Below are positions 11,383 through 64,000 of a stretch of DNA of 64,000 nucleotides, piece by piece. A program made the translations under genes and the position numbers. The notes beneath the pieces are model-generated. The model was given only the letters and a program-made list of their open reading frames with translations. It had not been told where the DNA came from and made no database searches. The stretch comes from Escherichia coli (GTDB taxonomy: Bacteria; Pseudomonadota; Gammaproteobacteria; Enterobacterales; Enterobacteriaceae), in NCBI RefSeq assembly GCF_003019035.1, contig NZ_CP027448.1; one strand, written 5' to 3'. Position 1 is the first letter of the stretch; every line of letters begins with the position of its first letter.

Positions 11383-11780
11383 TGCTGAAGTTTATGCTCA
11401 ATACCAACATCTGCATTTTTACGATAAAGAACAAACCCGCCAGTGTCAGGGAACGTTTTAACCTGAACCAGGGGAGAATGTGCATCAGTTCGGTCACTCT
11501 GATGGAGCTGATATATGGTGCAGAAAAAAGCCAGATGCCTGAACGTAATCTCGCTGTGATCGAGGGATTTGTTTCCCGCATTGACGTTCTGGATTACGAC
11601 GCTGCTGCTGCCACACACACCGGCCAGATAAGAGCAGAACTTGCCCGTCAGGGACGCCCTGTCGGGCCATTTGATCAAATGATCGCAGGTCATGCCCGCA
11701 GTCGGGGACTGATTATTGTGACTAATAACACCCGGGAATTTGAACGTGTGGGCGGCCTGAGAATTGAAGACTGGAGTTGA
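11382..11780 (+). CDS. vapC: VapC/VagD PIN-domain toxin
   Basis: 132-aa ORF with PIN-like pattern (MLNTNICIF..., ...LIIVTNNTREFERV), start overlaps the antitoxin stop. Confidence 0.8.
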   Translation: MLKFMLNTNICIFTIKNKPASVRERFNLNQGRMCISSVTLMELIYGAEKSQMPERNLAVIEGFVSRIDVLDYDAAAATHTGQIRAELARQGRPVGPFDQMIAGHARSRGLIIVTNNTREFERVGGLRIEDWS

Positions 11781-11788
11781 CCTGTTCA

Positions 11789-13942
11789 TCAGAAATCATC
11801 TCCCGGCTCAACATCCTCCCCGCGCTCCCGGTGCACATTAATGTTCACCTCTTCACGACGCTGCATCTGCTGCTGGATGTCCGGATGATTTTCCTGTTGC
11901 CATGCCTCATAAGCGGCCATATCCACCACTTCACCGGATTCACTGATCCCGGGTGGCAGTTGCTGTTCCATCTCTTCTTCCGGTTTCATTTTCAGCTCCT
12001 GCTCGATCCCCCCTACCGGAACATTCACACCTGAATCTGACTTCTTATCGTTGATGGCAGGAGACACCGGCTGTTGCGGCTGTTCAGCCTGAGTCACGTC
12101 TTCTCCGGAAACAACCTCCGGGACATCCGGTTCGAAGAGGCTGGCCATCTGACGACCTTCTGCTTCCCTTGCGGCAAGTACGGCACTCAGACGGTTCTCC
12201 ATTTCCGGGTTGATGTCACGCGGAATAAACTCCGGAGCGACCTTCGGTCGTGTCTGATATTTCAGAGAGAGTTTTACTGCCGGATACGGTCCGGGCAGGG
12301 TGACATAACAGGTCAGATCCGGCAGAGACTGAATGTCGGAATAACTGACCAGCGTCTGGCGCTCCATATCCTTACCGGTCGATACCCCGTCACGTACCGG
12401 ATCAGCACCGTAGGAATACTGCTCGCTGGCTTTCAGGTGCTCTTTCTCACCAATTTCACCGGCAGCGAACTCTGCAATCTTATGGCTGGGAGAACGGAAA
12501 AAGGCACGGGTGTTCATGACGTCAAACAGCGAGGCAGCCGCTTTCTCACCGTAGATATCTTCCAGCTGGGCATAGGACTGGATACCAAACACATAACAGC
12601 CACCGAACTTACGGGCTTCCGGCAGGATCTCCACCAGGTCCGGCAGTTTGTGTAACGTGGGTAACTCATCACAGAAAAACCACACACGACGGTTACGGTT
12701 TTCTCCCATTGCCAGCAGACCACGAATGGCAATGGACAGCCACATGGAGATCACCGGCTTCAGGGAGGCATGGGTGTCGGCATTCGACGAAATAAACAGC
12801 CAGCCGTTTTTCTGATCTTCCCGGACACCACGCATCCAGTCACGGATGGTAAAAGACTCACCGTTATGCTCAATCCCCTGCAGGTAACGGATGGCTTTCA
12901 CGTAGTTGGTCAGCACAGCACGGATGGAAATCGCCGTTTTCTCAATTTTCTCTTCCACCAGGTTGGCCGCCGGTGAATTACGCAGGAAGGTACGCAGTTT
13001 TTCGATTTTGATGGAAAGCAGTGTGTCCACCAGTTTGCTGTAGCTGCGGTTGGGGTCATTACGCATCAGGTACGCCGCTTCCGCAAAAATGGTACGTCCT
13101 GACCCCTGCCAGAACGGGTCCTCTTTTGTGCCCATCGGGATCAGCGTGTTCGCGGTATTATCAAAATCCGGCTGTGTCAGGCACTCCTTCCACAAATCCC
13201 AGGCGGCACAGCGGGCATCCAGCGGATTCAGGATTTTATCGATGGAGGGATCATAGTAACTTTTAACAAATTCCCCTGAACGGTCATAAATCACCACCAT
13301 ATCTCCACGCTGACGGGCGTAGTTGGCCAGACGACGGATAACTTCCGACTTACCGGCCCCGACCGTGCCGTGCAGACAGAAGTTCTGGATTTCGGAATCC
13401 CGGATAATCGGCAGGTCGCCAATCCGTATATCGGAGTCCTTGCCGTCTTTTTTCAGCATCCGGGCAACGTCTTTCGGATTGTCTGTCAGCTGACGACCAC
13501 CTGTGACTTCATTTTCGCTCTGTTGTTTACCCTGACGCCCCAGAATCCAGGAGACAACAAAGAAGGTAATCAGGCAAATAACCAGTGCCACAACTGTGGC
13601 CAGAACGAATGCGGACCATAGCTGCTCTCCGCACCAGATCATATATTTATCATGCAGTACCTGAGCAGCATTCATCCGGAAGGTTTTGCCGTAATACTGG
13701 ATCTCATATACCGGCTGGGACTTGATTAAATCCCGCATGCCTTCCAGCGTGGTACACCACCAGTAAATACAGCCGTTCACAAACGTCTGCCAGCTTATTT
13801 TTACCCATAAAACCAGACCAACGAGTATCCAGAAAAAAATAAACAGGCAGTAAAGCATGATATTGGCGATCTGGCTGAACATGCGGATACGCATGGACGC
13901 AATCTGACCGCCCTGGGTCATATCCTTTGCGTTAAAACTCAT
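11789..13942 (-). CDS. traD: TraD type IV coupling protein
   Basis: 717-aa ORF with N-terminal TM segments, Walker A GTVGAGKS and Q/P-rich C-terminus; matches F TraD and gene order. Confidence 0.95.
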
Positions 13943-54375: not shown

Positions 54376-54423
54376 TTTGACTGTATGTGGATTCAGTTAT
54401 TAGAATGCTGTATATGCATACAG
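54376..54423 (+). promoter_or_regulatory. imp promoter with LexA (SOS) box
   Basis: TTGACT (54376..54381), 18-bp spacer, TAGAAT (54400..54405), then CTGTATATGCATACAG (54408..54423), a perfect CTGT-N8-ACAG box; a half-like box CTGTATGTGGATTCAG lies at 54381..54396. Confidence 0.7.
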
Positions 54424-54446
54424 CAAAAGAAAAGAGAGATGAGAAC

Positions 54447-54695
54447 ATGATCCGCATTGAAATTCTTTTCGACCGCCAGAGCACAAAAAACCTCAAATCA
54501 GGCACACTTCAGGCGCTACAGAATGAAATCGAACAACGACTGAAACCACACTACCCGGAAATCTGGCTGCGTATAGACCAGGGCAGCGCCCCGTCTGTAT
54601 CTGTCACAGGAGCCCGCAACGACAAGGATAAAGAACGTATCCTGTCTCTGCTGGAAGAAATCTGGCAGGACGACAGCTGGCTGCCTGCAGCATGA
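54447..54695 (+). CDS. impC: ImpC (DinI-family SOS regulator)
   Basis: MIRIEILFDRQS...ILSLLEEIWQDDSWLP resembles the DinI C-terminus; first gene of an imp/umu-type operon; track ORF starts earlier at 54387. Confidence 0.75.
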   Translation: MIRIEILFDRQSTKNLKSGTLQALQNEIEQRLKPHYPEIWLRIDQGSAPSVSVTGARNDKDKERILSLLEEIWQDDSWLPAA

Positions 54696-55129
54696 GTACC
54701 GTTTATCACCGTCCGGCTGACCCTTCAGGCGATGACAGTTACGTGCGACCGTTGTTTGCCGATCGTTGCCAGGCCGGTTTTCCTTCGCCTGCCACTGATT
54801 ATGCTGAGCAGGAACTGGATCTGAACAGCTATTGCATCAGCAGACCTGCAGCCACCTTCTTTCTGCGCGCCAGCGGTGAATCGATGAACCAGGCTGACGT
54901 GCAGAATGGTGATCTGCTGGTAGTGGACAGGGCCGAAAAACCACAACACGGGGACATCGTTATCGCTGAGATCGACGGTGAGTTCACCGTCAAACGACTG
55001 CTGTTGCGCCCACGCCCGGCACTGGAGCCGGTTTCAGACAGCCCGGAGTTCCGCACACTGTATCCGGAAAACATCTGTATTTTTGGTGTTGTCACTCACG
55101 TGATACACAGGACGCGGGAGTTACGCTGA
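54692..55129 (+). CDS. impA: ImpA (UmuD-like S24 peptidase-domain protein)
   Basis: 145-aa ORF with LexA/UmuD-type Ser-Lys dyad context (ASGESM ... K) and overlap with impB start. Confidence 0.85.
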   Translation: MSTVYHRPADPSGDDSYVRPLFADRCQAGFPSPATDYAEQELDLNSYCISRPAATFFLRASGESMNQADVQNGDLLVVDRAEKPQHGDIVIAEIDGEFTVKRLLLRPRPALEPVSDSPEFRTLYPENICIFGVVTHVIHRTRELR

Positions 55130-55251
55130 TGTTTACACTGGCTGATATCAACAGTTTCTACGCCTCATGTGAAAAAGTTTTCCGCCCGGACCTTCGCAAC
55201 GAACCGGTCATCGTACTCAGCAATAACGATGGCTGTGTGATCGCACGCAGC
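55126..55251 (+). pseudogene. impB: impB (UmuC-like Y-family polymerase), 5' fragment cut by insertion
   Basis: MFTLADINSFYASCEKVFRPDLRNEPVIVLSNNDGCVIARS matches the UmuC N-terminus, then leaves homology and hits a stop at about 55284. Confidence 0.8.
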
Positions 55252-55301
55252 CCAGATTATGTGGAATTGCAAGTAACGTTGTAGTGCTGATGAGGAAAAT
55301 T

Positions 55302-57530
55302 TTATCTGACTACAATATTGATATCGTTTTCCGCAACAATCAGCATCACGGCAGGTAAACCCTCCACACGCATTTTCTGGTGTAATTTTTTGATTAAATT
55401 ATCATCTTCATTACTGGCTTTTGCGGAAAAGCCTTGTGGATGGGAGTGCCATTCGCCAACATAATCGACAACACGAGCGGTCAACTGGTGAACCCGTTCT
55501 AATGCTTCTTGTTGTCCCGCTTCTCCCCGGACAAAGGAGGCTGGAGAGGATTTACTGTCGATAGGTTCAGGGAGCACGTCAACCAGAATAATCGTTTTGT
55601 TCTTAAAATCTGTTATGCCAACAATTGCACCTCCTGTTTCATTAGGCAGTGCCTGTAAGCGGGTGTGCTGCAATTTTTGCGCTAAGCCCTGGTCATATTT
55701 AACAACCCATTCGCCAGAAATTATAGATACCACGGAATAGAGTTCAATTTCATGTGCATCCATCGCGCCTGATATTTCATCAGATACCCAGATACACAAT
55801 CGAGCATTTCCTTTGAGTGCAGTCTGGCGAAGTTGGCGTGAGAGGATACCGGCATGAACATGAATACATTCACTGGACATACGTACAGAAATATCCCGAC
55901 ATCCACCACCGACCCAACGATCGCCATAATTGTGCTGTAGGTGAGTACTTCCCCACTCACTGCTCAAAATTGCCCGATAGTATTGCCCCTCAATTGCATC
56001 AATTCGGCATTGTCTGTCTACATCCTCCATTAACATCACGCTAGACTGACCCGATGGAGTCAGAAACAGGCTAACTATTCTGGGTATATCATCTTTTAAC
56101 ACTAGAGTCCTCGGCACCTCAAAGGTGGTACTGACATCCACAACTAAGTCTGCCTCATTCATTGCCTTAGCAATATCATCATCGTCATCAAGAATACTTT
56201 TATGGATCGCCTGAGGGAGGGGCTCATGCGGATAAATAGATTTGGCAATATGCTGAATAATATGGGGTTTTGAGACTCCAATATGACAATCAAACCCAAT
56301 ATGGCGAGACAAATTATGTGGAAGAAGCCGATCTGGATCAATAAAAGTCCATGTCCCCCACCCCATTCGAATCCAAATATCAGCCAATGTACTACCAAGA
56401 GCGCCAACTCCAGCTAAAATACCTCGAAAAGCTGCACTCTCTGAATCAACAGCAGATATGTCTCTCGCATGTGTGGCCTTCATAGCCGAACGTATTTCAA
56501 CTGGTAAAAGCGGTAATTGTCGCCACTTGGTACTAATTGATCCGCCAAGAAGCCGTACGCGATGCTGTACTCCTCGCTCATTTTTTGGCGCCAGCATATC
56601 TAGTGCAGTGGCAAGTTCACCGAGTGAACTTTGCACAACATAGCCCATCACATCCGTACGTTCTGTTTCTCCGTTTCTTAGACGGGGGATCCAAAGCAGG
56701 ATAAGTAAGCCTTCTCCTTTACCAGACGTTGGGCGGATACCATCACTTGGTATTGCTTCATAAACAGCGTCAGTTAGTGGTTTTAGGAGCTCACTTCCCC
56801 ATTCATTAAGTTGTTCTTCTAATTTTCCCAGATTATCCGGGTATGTAGCCACCGTAGAAACATCGACAGGAGGAACAGCAATAGTTAATAAGCGAAATGG
56901 CTTAACGCTTGAGGTATCTTGTTCTGGTACAGCCCTTAAAATAATCGGTCGCCCCTCACTGACCATCTGGAGACTGAGCTTATTGTCAGTCGCGTGATGA
57001 TAATCGGGGTAATTGGCTGGCAAAATGAGCTGATAGGGACTCAAATAAAAAAGTTGCTCAAGTGGCTGATCTTCTCGATGTAGATGCAGTTCGGCCGATT
57101 CTCTAAGCCACCAAAAAATGCGCTCAAGGAATCTCTCGGGGGTCCAACTGCGCTCAACTGCGCTCCAGGAGGCCTCATATAGGCAAAGAATTCGTGGTGA
57201 GCCAGGTTCTCCAGCATGCTGGTGAGAAAGAACAGGGAAATCTTTCCGCAATGCATGAACCAAGATAGGTATGCTTGATTTGGGATTGACCTCAATAGCC
57301 AATCGTTCTTTACGACGAATACGGGCTTGATTACCAGAAGCCACAGTCCCATCAGCAGCATCAATGATTAGATATTCCGAGCGGTTATCATTTATTTCAG
57401 AAAATCGTAATTCTCTGACTGTGACGTAAGGATGATTCTCGCATGCTTTAAGCAGCGAAATCGTTTGTGGATAAAGGCTATCGCGCCCCGATGAATCGAG
57501 GCGCTCACCCAATTCGAAATATTCGATCAT
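55302..57530 (-). CDS. Fused E2-like / E1-like (ThiF/MoeB) / JAB-MPN peptidase protein
   Basis: 742-aa ORF: N-terminal H...C pattern (HQHAGEPGSPRILCLY, UBC-like); central Rossmann GILAGVGALGSTLADIWIRMGWGTWTFIDPDRLLPHNLSRH (E1 signature); C-terminal JAMM-like EWHSHPQGFSAKASNEDD. Confidence 0.75.
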   Translation of the reverse strand: MIEYFELGERLDSSGRDSLYPQTISLLKACENHPYVTVRELRFSEINDNRSEYLIIDAADGTVASGNQARIRRKERLAIEVNPKSSIPILVHALRKDFPVLSHQHAGEPGSPRILCLYEASWSAVERSWTPERFLERIFWWLRESAELHLHREDQPLEQLFYLSPYQLILPANYPDYHHATDNKLSLQMVSEGRPIILRAVPEQDTSSVKPFRLLTIAVPPVDVSTVATYPDNLGKLEEQLNEWGSELLKPLTDAVYEAIPSDGIRPTSGKGEGLLILLWIPRLRNGETERTDVMGYVVQSSLGELATALDMLAPKNERGVQHRVRLLGGSISTKWRQLPLLPVEIRSAMKATHARDISAVDSESAAFRGILAGVGALGSTLADIWIRMGWGTWTFIDPDRLLPHNLSRHIGFDCHIGVSKPHIIQHIAKSIYPHEPLPQAIHKSILDDDDDIAKAMNEADLVVDVSTTFEVPRTLVLKDDIPRIVSLFLTPSGQSSVMLMEDVDRQCRIDAIEGQYYRAILSSEWGSTHLQHNYGDRWVGGGCRDISVRMSSECIHVHAGILSRQLRQTALKGNARLCIWVSDEISGAMDAHEIELYSVVSIISGEWVVKYDQGLAQKLQHTRLQALPNETGGAIVGITDFKNKTIILVDVLPEPIDSKSSPASFVRGEAGQQEALERVHQLTARVVDYVGEWHSHPQGFSAKASNEDDNLIKKLHQKMRVEGLPAVMLIVAENDINIVVR

Positions 57531-58714
57531 TGGTTTGATACACCTGCCCTAGGAGCGGCGGCCGTAGCAGCACTTACCGCAGCTGAAACAGCACCAACAA
57601 TAGCGGGTATTAACTTCCCGTCTCCAGCCACTTCAAATTCAAGGAACGCTGTATCTTTAAGATCCCCCGTACAGCTAAACCAACCATCAACACTGTCCAG
57701 AATATCCTCATACTCACGCTTAGCCCGGATGCACGGTGGATCATAATCATCATCAAGTATCTGATTGCTACTCGATACAATTGTTGCCCCGGAACGAGCC
57801 TGACCTAAAGCATTACGGGCCGCATCACAAACTTCAGCATTCTCCCCCCATTGTGACCAGCTATCATAGGAAAGTGAATGCCATGAACAATGATGCGGTG
57901 TGAGGAGAAGATCATATTCTAGTGCCTCAGCATTGCTTTTGTAACGATCCCATAATCGCTCCCAGATGAGAACTTCTGCGTCTCCACCTAATAGAAAGTG
58001 CATAGGATTACGGGAATATGCAGAGGGCAGTATTTTCATGTTCATGATGATACTGGATTCGTTTTTAGAAAGAGCTTCTTCCAAATATTCATCATCTTCA
58101 TGTGGTGCGGGCGCCAGAAGCTGTGCGGAGAACACTTCTGAAATTTGCCCGTCAATTCTGGTGAATGTATCTCCAGCTTTGATAAGAATGGCACTCAGAT
58201 CATCTGTTTTGCCATTAATATCTTCACCCATGATAAGGATTCGATTACCGCTAGATGCATAACCATGTTCCCGCCAGTATTTTACTCGGCGCCGTGCTTC
58301 TGTATTAAATGCCTGAGCATCTTCGCAAAGTGTGTGACTTTTGGAACGACGCCGAAAAATCAATGGTGATGACCACAATTCTCGAATAATGATACGCTTT
58401 TCTGAACGTTTCACATCGTCATCTGGATAATCTTCAGGACGGCCCAGCCAGAAATGTTTACGCAGGCCACCGCAATGATCCTGATCGGGATGACTGAGCA
58501 TAAAAACATCAATAAAGGGACGATCTTTTTCATCATACTTCAATCTGCTACGTAATGCCGAGGCAACATCAGGTGTGTCATCATTGGGGTTATCAGCAGC
58601 AGAGCGAATATGTACATCAATCAGAATGGATGTGCCCCGGGTGTCGGCCAAACGTACCAGTGTCATATCACCGTTGCCGACTTGGAAAAAAGTAATTTTG
58701 GCTGCCATCGACAT
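57527..58714 (-). CDS. Metallo-beta-lactamase-fold protein
   Basis: 395-aa ORF with HPDQDHCGG (HxHxDH metal site); stop overlaps the downstream start (ATGA). Confidence 0.8.
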   Translation of the reverse strand: MSMAAKITFFQVGNGDMTLVRLADTRGTSILIDVHIRSAADNPNDDTPDVASALRSRLKYDEKDRPFIDVFMLSHPDQDHCGGLRKHFWLGRPEDYPDDDVKRSEKRIIIRELWSSPLIFRRRSKSHTLCEDAQAFNTEARRRVKYWREHGYASSGNRILIMGEDINGKTDDLSAILIKAGDTFTRIDGQISEVFSAQLLAPAPHEDDEYLEEALSKNESSIIMNMKILPSAYSRNPMHFLLGGDAEVLIWERLWDRYKSNAEALEYDLLLTPHHCSWHSLSYDSWSQWGENAEVCDAARNALGQARSGATIVSSSNQILDDDYDPPCIRAKREYEDILDSVDGWFSCTGDLKDTAFLEFEVAGDGKLIPAIVGAVSAAVSAATAAAPRAGVSNQ

Positions 58715-58767
58715 CTCCTTTAGGGATACGAAAGATTGAGGTTAAGAGCATCTATTGCTAAGATACA

Positions 58768-58796
58768 TCTAGTAATTATACTAGTCTAGTAATTAG
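58768..58796. promoter_or_regulatory. Direct repeats in the divergent promoter region; candidate operator
   Basis: tctagtaatta at 58768..58778 and 58785..58795, in the 128-bp gap between divergent operons. Confidence 0.35.
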
Positions 58797-58842
58797 ACGT
58801 ATATTTTGGACTTAAATTGTAAGTACAGGAAATTATTGATAA

Positions 58843-59697
58843 ATGAGTGATAAAATGGTGAGAACTGGTCATTGGAGCCAAGAAAGACGGCTTGAATTCA
58901 TCGATTTTCGCCTACTGTGGGAAGGTCGGCTTAACCGTGCAGATCTCACGACATTTTTCAGAATTTCAGTTCCGCAAGCCTCATTAGATTTGGCAAAATA
59001 TCAAGAAGTTGCGCCAAACAACATGGTGTATGATCGAACTCAGAAGGCTTACATTACGACTCCTGATTTCAAACCTGTTTTTACAAGCTTTGACAGTAAT
59101 CATTACCTGAATGAACTACTTGGGCGAGAAAATGAAATAGTGGATCCTGATGATAGTTTCATTGGGTGGGTACCCCCGGTAGCCAGCCTTCCTCTCCCTG
59201 CCAGGAAAGTACAACCTGAAATATTGATTGATTTAATTCGAGCCATGCAAAGAAAACAGGCTTTGGTTGTTGATTATCGCTCAATGACTAATGAACCAGC
59301 AATTCGTACGCTATACCCAACAGCATTTGCACATGATGGGCATCGGTGGCATGTTCGTGCTTATTGTTTTAAGTCTACAATGTTTAAAGATTTTGTTCTT
59401 GGTAGGTTTTTTAAAATCGTTGAATTTGTTTCCCCACCGACATCAATTCCACAAGATGTGGACTGGAATACATTTATTGACGTGGTAATAGGTCCAAACC
59501 CTAACTACGATATGAATAAACGGCTATCTATTGAACATGATTATCAAATGGTAAAAGGAGAAGCAAAAATCCACATACGTAAAGCGCAATTATATTATCT
59601 TAATCGTCGATTAAATTTGGATGTAAATAGCGATGGTTCAATAGATGACAAACAGCAGATCATCATGCTCAGAATAGACGAGTCTAAAACCTATTAA
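58843..59697 (+). CDS. wHTH-WYL regulator (BrxR/CapW-like)
   Basis: 284-aa ORF with N-terminal HTH-like region and WYL-like segment LVVDYRSMTNEPAIRTLYPTAFAHDGHRWHVRAYCFKSTMFKDFVLGRF. Confidence 0.65.
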   Translation: MSDKMVRTGHWSQERRLEFIDFRLLWEGRLNRADLTTFFRISVPQASLDLAKYQEVAPNNMVYDRTQKAYITTPDFKPVFTSFDSNHYLNELLGRENEIVDPDDSFIGWVPPVASLPLPARKVQPEILIDLIRAMQRKQALVVDYRSMTNEPAIRTLYPTAFAHDGHRWHVRAYCFKSTMFKDFVLGRFFKIVEFVSPPTSIPQDVDWNTFIDVVIGPNPNYDMNKRLSIEHDYQMVKGEAKIHIRKAQLYYLNRRLNLDVNSDGSIDDKQQIIMLRIDESKTY

Positions 59698-59709
59698 GGG
59701 AATATTTAT

Positions 59710-60228
59710 ATGAATGCGAATGATGTTAACAAACGGAATAAAGAATGGATGATTGTAATCATTATTATCTATCTTTTTATTTTGTTATGTATAGCAACAT
59801 ACGCTATTGGGGCTATGTCTCTAGGTTGGTTACCAACACCTTACGCACCATTAAGGGTGCCACTGATGTGCGGAGCAATTGCCTATATAGGTGGTTGTTT
59901 ATATTGTTTTCGTGCAATTTACCTCAATAAATGTATTAGAAAACAATGGGATCCAGATTGGCATGTATGGTATTTCATTCGCCCACTGACCAGTACAATC
60001 GCAGGTGCTATCAGTTATTTATTCCTTAAGGCGGGGTTGTTAGTTTTGGAGTCTAGTTCCAATGTAGGAGCTAGTGAAATGGGTTTCTTTGCGCTGGCAT
60101 TTATTGCTGGTTTTAACGTCGATAAATTTGTCGCAAAAATCGAGGAAGTTGCAAAGGCTGTCTGGGGTATTGAAAAAACTCGAAGCTCGACTAATAATGA
60201 TGCGAAAAATTCGGAAAAAAAAGAATAG
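59710..60228 (+). CDS. Small multi-pass membrane protein (about 4 TM helices)
   Basis: 172-aa hydrophobic ORF 13 bp downstream of the regulator gene. Confidence 0.6.
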   Translation: MNANDVNKRNKEWMIVIIIIYLFILLCIATYAIGAMSLGWLPTPYAPLRVPLMCGAIAYIGGCLYCFRAIYLNKCIRKQWDPDWHVWYFIRPLTSTIAGAISYLFLKAGLLVLESSSNVGASEMGFFALAFIAGFNVDKFVAKIEEVAKAVWGIEKTRSSTNNDAKNSEKKE

Positions 60229-60274
60229 TCTGGATGTATTTAAATTAAAATGAAATTAGTGCTGAGCTATTTTA

Positions 60275-61594
60275 TTACTTTCTCTTATTTCCTGGGGTCG
60301 CGCCCCCAGTGAGCTTATTCAAAAGTTTGTCCACTGCCTGTATATCGTTTTCTACAGCGGCTTGTTCGTCATCAGTCAAAGGGATTTCCTGCATCAGCTT
60401 GAGTAGATTCTGGCGACCTTCCAAGTATTGTGCTTCAGATGAAGATTTTGGCATATAAAATGAGCATTTTGCACATGCCATCCGATGGGGGCATTGCTCA
60501 AAAAAGTCATAAGTACAGAAACCGTGTCCAAGATCATAATAACGCCATGGCTTCCCGGATGCTACCAGCCCTTCAGCTATCGCGTCTTGATCAATGAGAA
60601 CTGAAACCATGCGGCGATTACATTCAAAGTAACCAGCTTTATCCAGTGATCCTGCCAACCTCGTCGGTGTAATTTCGACATAATGTCGGGTAGATTCAGG
60701 TGAAGAATGCCCCAACCATTTCTGTAGCTCAAAAATATCAAGTGGTTCCCTGGCGTTGTAAAGCTGACTGGCTATAGTGGCTCTTGCCCGATGGCTGGTG
60801 ATTTTACCTCTGGCATCCTGCTCAGGTATACCAGCCTTTCTGCATAGCAAAGGGATTAGCGAATTATTAATATAACTACTGTGTACCCGTTTCCCCCTGT
60901 GCATGAACAAAAAACGGACGCTTTCACCTGTTTTAGAATCTTCCTGGAGGGGGTGGGGGTTACGAACAAGTTCCCATTGTTCGATATATTCCCCGATAAT
61001 AGGGTCAACTGGCTTTGTGAATGCCGCGTAAGTCTTGCTAACGGGTACATCTATCAGACAGATACGGGATACATTATTTTCTTCTGGCTGTTGCCAGCGG
61101 ATACACCCACACTGCATACGTAGAATTTCATCACGTCTGAGGCCTCCAAATAACCAGAGAACGCTGAGTGCTCTGACCATCTCCAGTGGATAAAAATAAG
61201 GATATGCAACACAGTTTGGTAAATCCGACTCCTGCAGGTTCTGTCCGGCGTGAAGTAATTTACACCACATATCATCGGCCACAATACGAGGCTCTGGTCC
61301 AACCAGGGAAGTCAAGCTACGCGGTGCCCTGAAAACTCTTTCTGGGCTGAATCGTACAGGTATCCATCCCCATTCCTGCAAGTCATGAAAGAAAGTTCTA
61401 ATATGACCCAACATCCTGGCTCTCGCTGCAGGCATCATCATTTTGCCACGACGGTCACGATACATGCCCCCAGGGGTTGCCCATTCACCAACTTTCATTC
61501 TACAAGCGGCGGTCACCCAGACGATCGCGGTGTCCCGTGTCCAATCAGATGGTGACAGACAGGTTGGATAGCACTCAGCTAACCAGCTGACCAC
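60275..61594 (-). CDS. Tyrosine recombinase (large, with C-terminal Cys/His cluster)
   Basis: 439-aa ORF with GGLRRDE, HRARAT, LGHSSPESTRHY catalytic-type motifs and CPHRMACAKC cluster. Confidence 0.8.
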   Translation of the reverse strand: MVSWLAECYPTCLSPSDWTRDTAIVWVTAACRMKVGEWATPGGMYRDRRGKMMMPAARARMLGHIRTFFHDLQEWGWIPVRFSPERVFRAPRSLTSLVGPEPRIVADDMWCKLLHAGQNLQESDLPNCVAYPYFYPLEMVRALSVLWLFGGLRRDEILRMQCGCIRWQQPEENNVSRICLIDVPVSKTYAAFTKPVDPIIGEYIEQWELVRNPHPLQEDSKTGESVRFLFMHRGKRVHSSYINNSLIPLLCRKAGIPEQDARGKITSHRARATIASQLYNAREPLDIFELQKWLGHSSPESTRHYVEITPTRLAGSLDKAGYFECNRRMVSVLIDQDAIAEGLVASGKPWRYYDLGHGFCTYDFFEQCPHRMACAKCSFYMPKSSSEAQYLEGRQNLLKLMQEIPLTDDEQAAVENDIQAVDKLLNKLTGGATPGNKRK

Positions 61595-62525
61595 ACTTTA
61601 GCAAAACGTACCAACCGGACAAAATAGATGAAGGGCGAAGTACTGAGGTAGCACGCCACCGTTTGCACCATACCAGCCATTTAGTTGGTACATCAGCTGT
61701 TGCATTATATTCGCGGGGAGGACGGCGACGTTGTGTTATTCGGTAATCAACCCCTTCCTCAATAGTCCCTGATGCAGCCAGTATACGCGATAGAGTAGCT
61801 GAGGCTTCCCGGAGGGAATCCGGGCACGTTGCAGCAATCTGTTGCAACGTGGTCACGGTGATATGGTCTAGTTGAGCATCCCTTTGCAGAAGCATTGCCA
61901 TACACATGGCATTTCTGATGCCGTTGTTCCGACTATCACGAGGCACATATCCCAGAACCTGCATCATATTGTCAAGCTGGCTGACGGCAAAATCGGTGCT
62001 CTGTCGGCCAAAAACCTTAAGACAGAGCCGATATTGATAGAATATGCCACAGTGTTCCAGCCGCTCAAACCCACATAGCAACCATGCTAACGCTATAACA
62101 TATTGCCGACAGTTGCCGCTGGCTCCAAACCGTCGACGAAATTCCCCTTCGCTGTTGCAAATAACTTCTAACCACTCTTCTTGTGTCCAGGCCCAGTATG
62201 TTTTCCGGATGCGCTGCATCTCTAGGACTATATCGTGAATAGATGAATTGTAGGGGGCCTTGGCCGCATGCATTTTTGTTAGCGTGTCGCGTAGTGGTAA
62301 AAGAAGGCGGGAAAGCCGTTTTTGTATATCAGGTGACCAGTTTTTACCTCCTTGCTGGAAGTGGTCGACCAATGTATCCAGTGCCGCAAGCTCGCTTTCA
62401 GAGATCTCCGATCGGGTATCCCAAAGTAGGGCAGGAAGACTGAGTGATGTTGTCGGACAAGGCGCTGTATGTTCAGATTGCATCATGGAGAAGGATCCTG
62501 CTGTTGTAGTACAGTAAGGCGGCAA
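61575..62525 (-). CDS. Recombinase-associated ORF (overlaps both flanking recombinase genes)
   Basis: 316-aa ORF overlapping the upstream gene by 43 nt and the downstream gene by 20 nt; no catalytic motifs seen; could be an accessory protein or the frameshifted N-terminal part of the 439-aa recombinase. Confidence 0.5.
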   Translation of the reverse strand: MPPYCTTTAGSFSMMQSEHTAPCPTTSLSLPALLWDTRSEISESELAALDTLVDHFQQGGKNWSPDIQKRLSRLLLPLRDTLTKMHAAKAPYNSSIHDIVLEMQRIRKTYWAWTQEEWLEVICNSEGEFRRRFGASGNCRQYVIALAWLLCGFERLEHCGIFYQYRLCLKVFGRQSTDFAVSQLDNMMQVLGYVPRDSRNNGIRNAMCMAMLLQRDAQLDHITVTTLQQIAATCPDSLREASATLSRILAASGTIEEGVDYRITQRRRPPREYNATADVPTKWLVWCKRWRATSVLRPSSILSGWYVLLKCGQLVS

Positions 62526-63535
62526 GTATGCAAGGATGCGACCGTGTAATTGAAACGACTACTCAGATCACGTGCGCTGAGATGAATATAGAGCAGAGTT
62601 GACTGGATACGACGGTGGCCAGCGAATGCAGCAATTTCGTGGATGTCCCACCCCACGCGTGCCAGTTCTGTCAGACAAAGATGTCGGAATGTGTGGGTGC
62701 TGATGAGTGGAAGATCAGCCTTAATAGCTAAACCGCGAACTACTTTTGACCAAGTCCAGTTGCTAATAGGTTCTGCCCGATTACGCGGAGAGCGTGAGAG
62801 AAACAACGGACCGCGAGATGAGCTTAGCATACGACGTTCAGTGAGCCATGCTGTGTAGAGTTCCCCCGTCACAGGAGAATAGGGCACAACCCGACCAAAG
62901 CGGTTTTTGGTATGCTCAGCGCGCACAGTGAGCAAGCGTTGAGAAGGGTCAATATCTCCGGTAGCTACTGTGCAAAGTTCTTCTCTGCGTAATCCGCAGT
63001 CGTAGGCCAGTGCCAGCATAAAACGAGTACGGATATCAGCTTGTCCGGCTACCTCAAGAAAGCGCAACCACTCCGCATCATCCGGGATCCACGGTAGCCG
63101 CCGCTGCAACGGCACTATACCAGCTTTTCCTTTCCCTCCGTTTTTCCAGACACCTCGTCTGACAGGATTTCTCTCCCGTATCCCCTCCTCACAAAGCCAA
63201 TAGTTGTACAGTCGTACCACCGTCAGCCGGTGGCGGATAGTGGCAGCTGCCAGCTGGCGACCGGTATGCAGGCTGCGGACATAGAGTGCGACCGTATCAC
63301 GTCCAGCGACAGCAGCCGTCAGGGCAACAGAGTGACAGAAAGCGAGCCAGTCATTGACGCCACGGGCATAGGCATCAATGGTGTTTGGAGCACACAGCAG
63401 GTCCTCCTGCAGGCACACCCACCGGCAAGCTGAAGGATCGGCCGACAGAAAAGGCAGCGCATCCAGCAGTTTCTTGTGCACAGCATCCCCCTTTTCGATA
63501 ACAGAATGTGTTGTATGAAATATAGTCAATTCCAA
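62483..63535 (-). CDS. Tyrosine recombinase (XerC/D-like)
   Basis: 350-aa ORF with GLRREE, HTFRH, GHRRIQSTLLYIHL catalytic-type motifs. Confidence 0.85.
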   Translation of the reverse strand: MELTIFHTTHSVIEKGDAVHKKLLDALPFLSADPSACRWVCLQEDLLCAPNTIDAYARGVNDWLAFCHSVALTAAVAGRDTVALYVRSLHTGRQLAAATIRHRLTVVRLYNYWLCEEGIRERNPVRRGVWKNGGKGKAGIVPLQRRLPWIPDDAEWLRFLEVAGQADIRTRFMLALAYDCGLRREELCTVATGDIDPSQRLLTVRAEHTKNRFGRVVPYSPVTGELYTAWLTERRMLSSSRGPLFLSRSPRNRAEPISNWTWSKVVRGLAIKADLPLISTHTFRHLCLTELARVGWDIHEIAAFAGHRRIQSTLLYIHLSARDLSSRFNYTVASLHTCRLTVLQQQDPSP

Positions 63536-63543
63536 ATAACATA

Positions 63544-64000
63544 GAAGCGAAGCGGCTGGGCATAAAAATGGGAGTACCGTGGTTTCAGCTGAAGTCGGTG
63601 AAATTTCCGGAGCCGGTCATCGCCTTCTCCAGTAATTACGCGCTATACGCATCGATGTCGAACAGGGTTATGTCTCATCTCGAGGAGCTGGCGCCGGGCG
63701 TGGAGCAGTACAGTATTGATGAGATGTTTCTCGACGTGCGGGGTATTGACAGCTGCATCGATTTCGAGGATTTCGGCCGGCAGCTGCGTGAACACGTCAG
63801 GAACGGGACTGGCCTGACTATCGGTGTCGGAATGGGGCTAACCAAAACGCTGGCAAAGTCAGCACAGTGGGCTTCCAAAGAGTGGCCACAGTTTGGTGGC
63901 GTGCTGGCGTTAACGCCAGGCAATATCCGCCGTACGGAAAAACTGCTGTCACTGCAGCCGGTGGAGGAAATCTGGGGGGTAGGCAGCAGGATATCAAAGA
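63544..64000 (+). pseudogene. impB: impB (UmuC-like), 3' portion after the insertion (continues beyond window end)
   Basis: In-frame EAKRLGIKMGVPWFQLKSVKFPEPVIAFSSNYALYASMSNRVMSHLEELAPGVEQYSIDEMFLDVRGID... matches the UmuC region that follows the N-terminal fragment. Confidence 0.8.

Follow-up and report, generated by a model that had tools for sequence, protein, structure and literature searches.

Iyer et al. 2006 described operon type 6a as "usually two genes", one for an E2-E1-JAB triple-module protein and one for a specialised metallo-β-lactamase (MBL) (PMC1779556). PMC13276650 cites van den Berg et al. 2024 for the 6A-MBL anti-phage system; 6A-MBL is counted among the validated defences in later papers, and that of Pseudomonas aeruginosa is listed among the jumbo-phage defences (bioRxiv 2025.09.30.679545). 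For 6A-MBL we searched the literature and the solved structures, and neither a published mechanism nor a structure came up. We analysed a 64,000-nucleotide stretch of Escherichia coli DNA (contig NZ_CP027448.1 of assembly GCF_003019035.1; hereafter the window) in which the two genes of a 6A-MBL system lie opposite a divergently transcribed pair that encodes a WYL-domain regulator and a small membrane protein, here called MEM (Table 1). An earlier note on this DNA took the regulator and MEM to be a second candidate defence module or its controller, an interpretation that our results support in part. We favour, at a probability of about 0.55, the view that all four genes make up one mobile 6A-MBL-type cassette, consisting of a CapW/BrxR repressor, the 6A-MBL core, and MEM as the partner of the MBL, because MEM partners the MBL, the genes share operons in other lineages, and the four are the sole cargo of a mobile element.

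Further described systems bear on the two additional genes. CapW binds palindromes over the −10 box and represses transcription in both directions, and mutation of its R32, S42, Q45 and S47 abolishes DNA binding (PMC9122588). The RWHVR motif of the CapW WYL domain, together with Ser and Arg residues, senses single-stranded DNA (ssDNA), and ssDNA relieves repression (PMC11662680). BrxR-type regulators are found beside many different systems (PMC9122601). PDC-M48, composed of a protein with three transmembrane (TM) segments (A) and an MBL (B), is one of 145 untested members of the phage-defence candidate (PDC) systems (bioRxiv 2024.01.29.577857); a literature search for PDC-M48 found nothing. 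ComEC/Rec2 is a channel for DNA uptake to which an MBL nuclease domain is fused, and this domain operates while joined to the polytopic membrane part.

By sequence, the MBL and the E2-E1-JAB protein of the window are clear members of 6A-MBL. The 395-aa protein matched NCBIfam NF058524 ("6A-MBL system MBL-fold protein") at E 1.4e-127, with 425.6 bits against a cut-off of 220, and the 742-aa protein matched NF058523 ("6A-MBL system cap2_3 protein") at E 2e-198, with 661.1 bits against a cut-off of 320; the PADLOC E1-E2 and JAB models also matched the 742-aa protein. The likeness to 6A-MBL thus lies in scores well above the curated cut-offs and in the fact that the four genes travel together, the same arrangement being present in P. 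aeruginosa and other Pseudomonas in other genomic contexts. The difference is that the sources consulted present 6A-MBL as two genes, and NCBIfam covers it by those two models only, whereas the WYL regulator and MEM, described in none of these sources, are extra here. The MBL and E2-E1-JAB genes lie on one strand and overlap by 4 bp. On the opposite side, 12 nt separate the regulator gene from the MEM gene, and a Shine-Dalgarno-like sequence, AAGGGA, overlaps the TAA stop codon of the regulator.

We called open reading frames (ORFs) in 64 MEM loci (60 obtained by scanning a single genome of each GTDB species, plus four Pseudomonas loci) and assigned the neighbours by iterative hidden Markov model (HMM) searches seeded with the four proteins of the window. 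The 60 scanned loci came from at least seven phyla and spanned Pseudomonadota, Bacteroidota, Verrucomicrobiota, Omnitrophota, Desulfobacterota, Poribacteria, and a Heliomicrobium. An MBL-fold gene adjoined MEM in 58 of the 64 loci, an E2-E1-JAB gene (E2E1JAB below) was present in about 29, and a WYL gene in 15, leaving 49 without one. The MEM-MBL gene gaps were often 0–4 bp, and the two genes were often translationally coupled. The gene order of the window, with MBL>E2E1JAB and WYL>MEM divergent from each other, was found in nine loci, and WYL divergent from MBL>E2E1JAB>MEM in six. Other arrangements were MEM>MBL2 (17 loci), MEM>MBL>E2E1 (five), MBL>E2E1JAB>MEM without WYL (three or four), and either MBL>MEM or MEM>MBL1 (several). 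At least six lineages have MEM at the end of an MBL>E2E1JAB operon, with only WYL on the divergent side. In the two-gene MEM>MBL pairs the MBLs matched PADLOC PDC-M48B (3e-169, 1.2e-154 and 4.4e-142). In no locus did WYL and MEM form a pair away from an MBL gene. We conclude that MEM is a dedicated neighbour of MBL-fold defence proteins and not of the regulator: adjacency to an MBL in 58 loci, as against the 15 with WYL, and the PDC-M48B pairs identify the MBL-fold enzyme as its constant partner.

The four genes are also held together by an integrative element that splits umuC, as they are the only cargo of this element besides its recombinases. The umuC stub (55129–55284) has ...VIARS at its end, and the remainder of umuC picks up with EAKRLGIKMG at about 63.55 kb; the GC content is 0.38–0.47 over roughly 55–61 kb, compared with 0.57–0.60 upstream. 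The element is inserted at the same point of the chromosomal umuC in E. coli G3/10 and AMSCJX02 (L146, L147), and because the same umuC codon is hit in F-type plasmids and in chromosomes, its targeting appears to be site-specific to a conserved stretch of umuC. Besides pSE11-2, 36 further plasmids carry the region, at 99% identity or more across at least 80% of its length in all of them. As the element is present in 28–33 of 5,426 complete E. coli genomes (about 0.5%), and MEM on 179 PLSDB plasmids, of which 125 are from Klebsiella, the cassette matters for the phage susceptibility of clinical Enterobacteria.

We also sampled in the reverse direction: 80 loci, taken from metagenomes by means of the E2-E1-JAB protein alone and so independent of MEM, defined what is core to 6A-MBL. 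The MBL>E2E1JAB core was found in 73 of the 80 loci, the remainder being truncated contigs. A WYL gene was present in 11, nine of which had no MEM. MEM was found in only four of the 80 loci, and we rejected it as a core 6A-MBL gene on that count; the WYL regulator and MEM are lineage-specific accessories of 6A-MBL. An operonic multi-TM ORF directly followed E2E1JAB in 23 of the 67 loci with enough downstream sequence, a fraction not clearly above the genomic background of about 20–25% membrane proteins, so that the weight falls on the fact that particular families recur at one set position, and not on the raw fraction. The TM families after E2E1JAB were T1 (11 loci), T2 (five loci), T3, T4, and MEM, and they are mutually unrelated. 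T2 corresponds to PADLOC PDC-M48A (E 4.7e-67), with PDC-M48B (3.5e-144) as the MBL behind it. This match indicates that a small TM protein with an MBL is a recurring cassette, often appended to 6A-MBL, in which MEM takes the TM slot, and PDC-M48 seems to be a frequent add-on to 6A-MBL and not only a stand-alone candidate. In many 6A-MBL operons E2E1JAB is followed by a small TM protein and by a second, tail-less MBL (L079, L081, L099, L108, L109, L113, L114, L124); in one family these two are PDC-M48A and PDC-M48B.

The pair of MEM and its MBL resembles PDC-M48 in that a small multi-TM protein lies beside an MBL-fold hydrolase, often with translational coupling, in that the two-gene loci set MEM beside MBLs that are bona fide matches to PDC-M48B, and in that PDC-M48 A and B cassettes sit directly after E2E1JAB in many 6A-MBL operons. 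It differs in both components. MEM is not homologous to PDC-M48A: no HMM match was obtained at E 10, and hhalign of MEM against T1 and T2 gave probabilities below 1% (0.1% for T2, the PDC-M48A type). The MBL of the window is of the 6A type and carries a PRAG tail, and it matches PDC-M48B only weakly (2e-6 and 1e-3).

The earlier note had assigned the 284-aa protein to the BrxR/CapW type and had named the lack of a WYL fold as evidence that would count against this. The assignment held. A Pfam WYL domain was found at aa 127–189 (E 8.6e-8), and PADLOC WYL models matched at 9e-12. A phmmer search of the Protein Data Bank (PDB) aligned aa 10–282 of the regulator with residues 10–284 of Stenotrophomonas maltophilia CapW (7tb6, E 1.2e-62, 39% identity); P. 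aeruginosa CapW (7tb5, E 4.3e-62), CapW 9c5g (E 1.8e-49), Acinetobacter BrxR (7t8k, E 2.5e-38), and 7qfz (E 2.5e-30) were also matched, all of these likewise over the full length. In a gap-free alignment R32, S42, Q45, and S47 occupy positions identical to those of S. maltophilia CapW, and the ssDNA-contact residues are represented by RWHVR at aa 168–172 together with S147 and R189. A Pseudomonas orthologue of the regulator carries the Pfam domains WHD_BrxR, WYL, and BrxR_CTD. Full-length homology and the retention of all the published functional residues place the regulator, on sequence grounds, in the CapW/BrxR family of winged helix-turn-helix (wHTH)-WYL-WCX repressors; it adds a new member to a known family and lies in the kind of place that would be expected. 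Neither the regulator nor MEM matched any NCBIfam model.

The comparison with CapW/BrxR extends beyond the residues of the wHTH and WYL domains. The regulator has the same length and the same three-domain layout, it is divergent from the operon that it may control, where a palindrome, the candidate operator, covers promoter-like −10 hexamers, and it adjoins a Cap2/Cap3-type (E1-E2, JAB) system, as many CapW proteins do. Unlike the described cases, the neighbouring system is 6A-MBL and not the anti-phage signalling system based on cyclic oligonucleotides (CBASS) or bacteriophage exclusion (BREX), the regulator is co-transcribed with the membrane component of the system, and the candidate operator is a composite palindrome of about 46 bp, compared with about 20 bp in the published sites.

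This candidate operator lies in the divergent region common to the two transcripts and was found by a repeat search. Homologous loci of E. coli, of several Pseudomonas species, and of metagenomes share the blocks AAGATAC(G/A)T.TAG, GTCTA(G/C), and CG(T/A)ATATTTT of this region. In the palindrome, the outer half-sites GATAC(A/G)T.TAG and (A/G)CGTAT and the central GTCTAG are kept, and the non-coding DNA that flanks the conserved blocks diverges between loci. The suggestion that the regulator may repress the operon divergent from it thus gains a candidate site: with a conserved palindrome over both promoter-like −10 boxes, repression is the natural reading. Since CapW is reported to bind −10 palindromes and to repress bidirectionally, we strongly infer by homology that the regulator would repress both transcripts.

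Table 1. Coordinates of the cassette, its regulatory region and the surrounding element in the window.
Feature	Position	Strand	Details
E2-E1-JAB fusion ORF (6A-MBL cap2_3)	55302..57530	-	742 aa
MBL-fold protein ORF of 6A-MBL	57527..58714	-	395 aa
Codons for the MBL C-terminal ...PRAG-VSNQ, ubiquitin-like Gly tail	57530..57553	-	motif comparison
Divergent regulatory region, common to the WYL>MEM and MBL>E2E1JAB transcripts	58715..58842		128 bp
Imperfect palindrome, candidate operator for a WYL repressor dimer	58760..58805		repeat search; 26-nt arms (58760-58785 and 58780-58805), 77% complementary
Promoter-like site for WYL>MEM	58755..58782	+	TTGCTA, 16-nt spacer, TATACT; consensus match only; −10 hexamer at the palindrome centre, overlapping the − strand −10 (58780-58775)
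Promoter-like site for MBL>E2E1JAB	58775..58803	-	TATACG, 17-nt spacer, perfect TATAAT; relaxed scan, consensus match only; −10 hexamer likewise at the palindrome centre
WYL regulator ORF	58843..59697	+	ATG start, 284 aa; program-made ORF list
MEM ORF	59710..60228	+	ATG start, 172 aa; program-made ORF list
Integrative element, four genes and tyrosine recombinases, splits umuC	55270..63550 (approximate)		about 8.3 kb; from umuC ends and GC drop

The protein directly after the regulator had been described as having roughly four TM segments, and this agrees with the hydropathy profile and the AlphaFold2 model (mean predicted local distance difference test score, pLDDT, 76.8), which give hydrophobic helices at about 14–36, 48–70, 88–113, and 122–135, followed by an amphipathic helix at 137–152. 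Lys and Arg are found at the N-terminus, in loop 2, and at the C-terminus only, a distribution from which the topology is predicted to be N-in/C-in; sequence and model together indicate an inner-membrane protein with a cytoplasmic C-terminal amphipathic helix. The family is large, with 563 members after clustering at 90% identity and 730 at 50%. An alignment of 27 diverse sequences, down to 53% identity, had 47 invariant columns and a mean column identity of 57%. MEM is not a chance ORF, given its hundreds of homologues and these invariant columns, and it is unusually well conserved for a membrane protein of this size. The invariant columns are concentrated in cytoplasmic loop 2 (YLNKC.RK.WD..W..WYF.RP) and in the C-terminal amphipathic helix (NVDKF..KIE.VA.A.WGI), and the TM helices hold the invariant charged or polar residues R68, N73, R91, E114, and E123.

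MEM is a widespread, cross-phylum family and a new one, represented in none of Pfam, NCBIfam, PADLOC, and PHROGs. Pfam gave no match even at E ≤ 10, NCBIfam and PHROGs gave none, and PADLOC gave none at E ≤ 10 for MEM and seven homologues; the sequence profile and Foldseek searches of the PDB returned noise only, with no significant match. Clear homology to a housekeeping transporter subunit, which the earlier note had named as evidence against its reading, was not found in any of the profile, PDB sequence, or fold searches. Foldseek against AFDB50 retrieved only uncharacterised members of the family, two of which carry an automatic "Holin" label. A tblastn search of 50,697 phage records found no match to MEM; because the family is absent from these phage genomes and from PHROGs, we rejected the label and with it the identity of MEM as a phage holin or lysis protein.

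Tandem MEM-MEM proteins occur in the family. In one locus (L152, 6001–7431, P0144) a MEM domain is fused in a single protein to a C-terminal trypsin-like domain (GDSG; Pfam Trypsin_2 weak, E 0.025), and the fusion gene lies within an operon of five genes, the first of which encodes a patatin-like phospholipase; this is possibly another uncharacterised defence operon. A further family of about 270 aa (c13), which has no NCBIfam or PADLOC match, adjoins the second MBL downstream of MEM in Pseudomonas alcaligenes and P. mendocina (L006–L009, about 11640–12460, − strand), and it also adjoins the WYL gene in P. sputi (L013).

The MBL of the window ends ...AAAPRAG-VSNQ. The motif [AP]P[RK][AVM]G was found at the C-terminus, or 1–9 residues before it, in all 88 distinct MBLs encoded directly upstream of E2E1JAB, and among 70 other MBLs it was found only in L120, which adjoins a split E2E1JAB gene. 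The AlphaFold2 model of the MBL has a pLDDT of 89.5, and its tail (371–395) is disordered, with values below 50. In type II CBASS, the C-terminus of the CD-NTase is reportedly the conjugation substrate (Ledvina et al. 2023). With a PRAG tail on each MBL linked to E2-E1-JAB, the MBL itself is, by analogy, the probable substrate for adenylation and conjugation by E1/E2 and for trimming or release by JAB.

The best fold match of the MBL in the PDB was 9ic4, the β-lactamase-like domain of ComEC (E 2e-13, TM-score 0.74 normalised to the target); RNase J was far behind (E 1.8e-6). The NCBIfam model ComEC_Rec2 also gave weak matches to the MBLs that partner MEM. The cassette MBL is thus structurally nearest to the ComEC/Rec2 domain that works together with a membrane part. 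The membrane part here stands apart as a 4-TM protein of its own, in which we detected no similarity to the competence domain of ComEC, and the context is defence and not competence; we offer the analogy as a hypothesis and claim no membership.

These comparisons suggest how the cassette could work. By homology, the homodimeric regulator would shut off both its own transcript, which includes MEM, and that of the MBL and E2-E1-JAB, and it would leave the DNA once its WYL domain binds ssDNA from phage replication or DNA damage. MEM would keep the ComEC-like MBL nuclease at the inner membrane, or gate it there, through loop 2 and the amphipathic helix, a "split ComEC" arrangement in which the enzyme would act at the site of phage DNA entry. 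E2-E1-JAB would separately process the MBL and conjugate it through the PRAG tail. The tethering or gating of the MBL by MEM is the role that we favour, although we put it at somewhat less than even odds; it is suggested by the surface-specific conservation, by the near-obligate adjacency to an MBL even where E1/E2/JAB are lacking, and by the ComEC analogy. A bolder form of this proposal, in which the MEM family would convert ComEC-like MBL nucleases from soluble enzymes into anti-phage nucleases resident in the membrane, a "split ComEC" in reverse that is armed in 6A-MBL by PRAG conjugation and placed under a CapW-type ssDNA switch, is distinctly doubtful in our judgement. Defence would in that case take place at the membrane, at the sites of phage DNA entry or of the jumbo-phage early vesicle.

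Several observations weigh against the one-cassette view and the role it gives to MEM. MEM was missing from 76 of the 80 sampled 6A-MBL loci, and the 6A-MBL core therefore does not need it. The MBL is a putative nuclease by fold similarity alone, and its physical link with MEM is a proposal. Both promoter assignments are consensus matches only, and the eight promoter-like sites found are no excess over the 6.9 ± 3.3 in shuffled sequence. Finally, the TM slot after E2E1JAB is taken by at least five unrelated families, the usual pattern of interchangeable effectors such as the TM effectors of CBASS.

The last observation is the main argument for an alternative in which MEM is a terminal abortive-infection effector that oligomerises and permeabilises or depolarises the inner membrane after activation of the MBL and E2-E1-JAB. 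This would place the membrane-disrupting effector suggested in the earlier note within the one system. MEM is small, with four TM segments and a charged, hydrophilic C-terminal tail; the tandem proteins suggest oligomerisation; by CapW logic MEM would be repressed together with the regulator, as toxic effectors often are; and the two relatives labelled "Holin" would fit, although the label itself is without support. However, polar and aromatic residues are kept from phylum to phylum to a degree far above what would be expected of holin-like pore formers, which argues for a more specific role, as do the tandem proteins and the trypsin-like fusion, and MEM almost never occurs without an MBL neighbour, so that it is not a free-standing effector. 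The absence of homologues from the phage records searched and from PHROGs and of any significant Foldseek match to solved structures also speaks against such a pore, and we regard this alternative as rather unlikely.

We consider it improbable that MEM is instead a sensor of an infection event at the membrane (DNA injection, a perturbation of the superinfection-exclusion or holin type, or the jumbo-phage early vesicle) that sets the MBL nuclease free or activates it. A two-gene MEM>MBL module has to sense as well as execute, and the MBL is its sole enzyme; the invariant charged and polar residues within the TM helices and the listing of 6A-MBL as a jumbo-phage defence point the same way. The proposal is nevertheless purely inferential and cannot be separated computationally from tethering or gating. 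That WYL and MEM form an independent defence or toxin/regulator module beside 6A-MBL, akin to the second candidate module of the earlier note, is very improbable and was rejected on the gene-architecture counts, because, although the two share a transcription unit of their own here and BrxR-type regulators keep company with many systems, most loci with one of the two genes lack the other (nine of 11 WYL-containing 6A-MBL loci and 49 of 64 MEM loci), MEM is co-transcribed with the MBL and E2-E1-JAB elsewhere, the pair never stood apart from an MBL gene, and the four genes are the entire cargo of one element.

The one-cassette view provides handles on 6A-MBL: a CapW-type switch with a defined candidate operator, a ubiquitin-like PRAG tail that makes the MBL the probable counterpart of the CD-NTase substrate of type II CBASS, and a conserved family of membrane partners that links 6A-MBL to the PADLOC candidate PDC-M48. 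The new element among these is the MEM family, which points to a membrane step in a validated defence system. Pipelines that seek two genes only would miss half of the four-gene cassette.

Further observations concern the element that carries the cassette. Two ORFs on the − strand (60275–61594 and 61575–62525) correspond to a single coding sequence for a tyrosine recombinase of 736 aa in AMSCJX02 (L147, 10562–12772); in the window and in pSE11-2 this coding sequence is split by a 1-bp indel near 61575–61594. The apparent trio of recombinases is thus two genes, one of them frameshifted, and this copy of the element may therefore be immobile. The element directly follows a DinI-like gene and umuD (54387–55284), SOS-regulated genes of the plasmid leading region, a position that would embed the ssDNA-sensing CapW-type switch in a DNA-damage-inducible operon.

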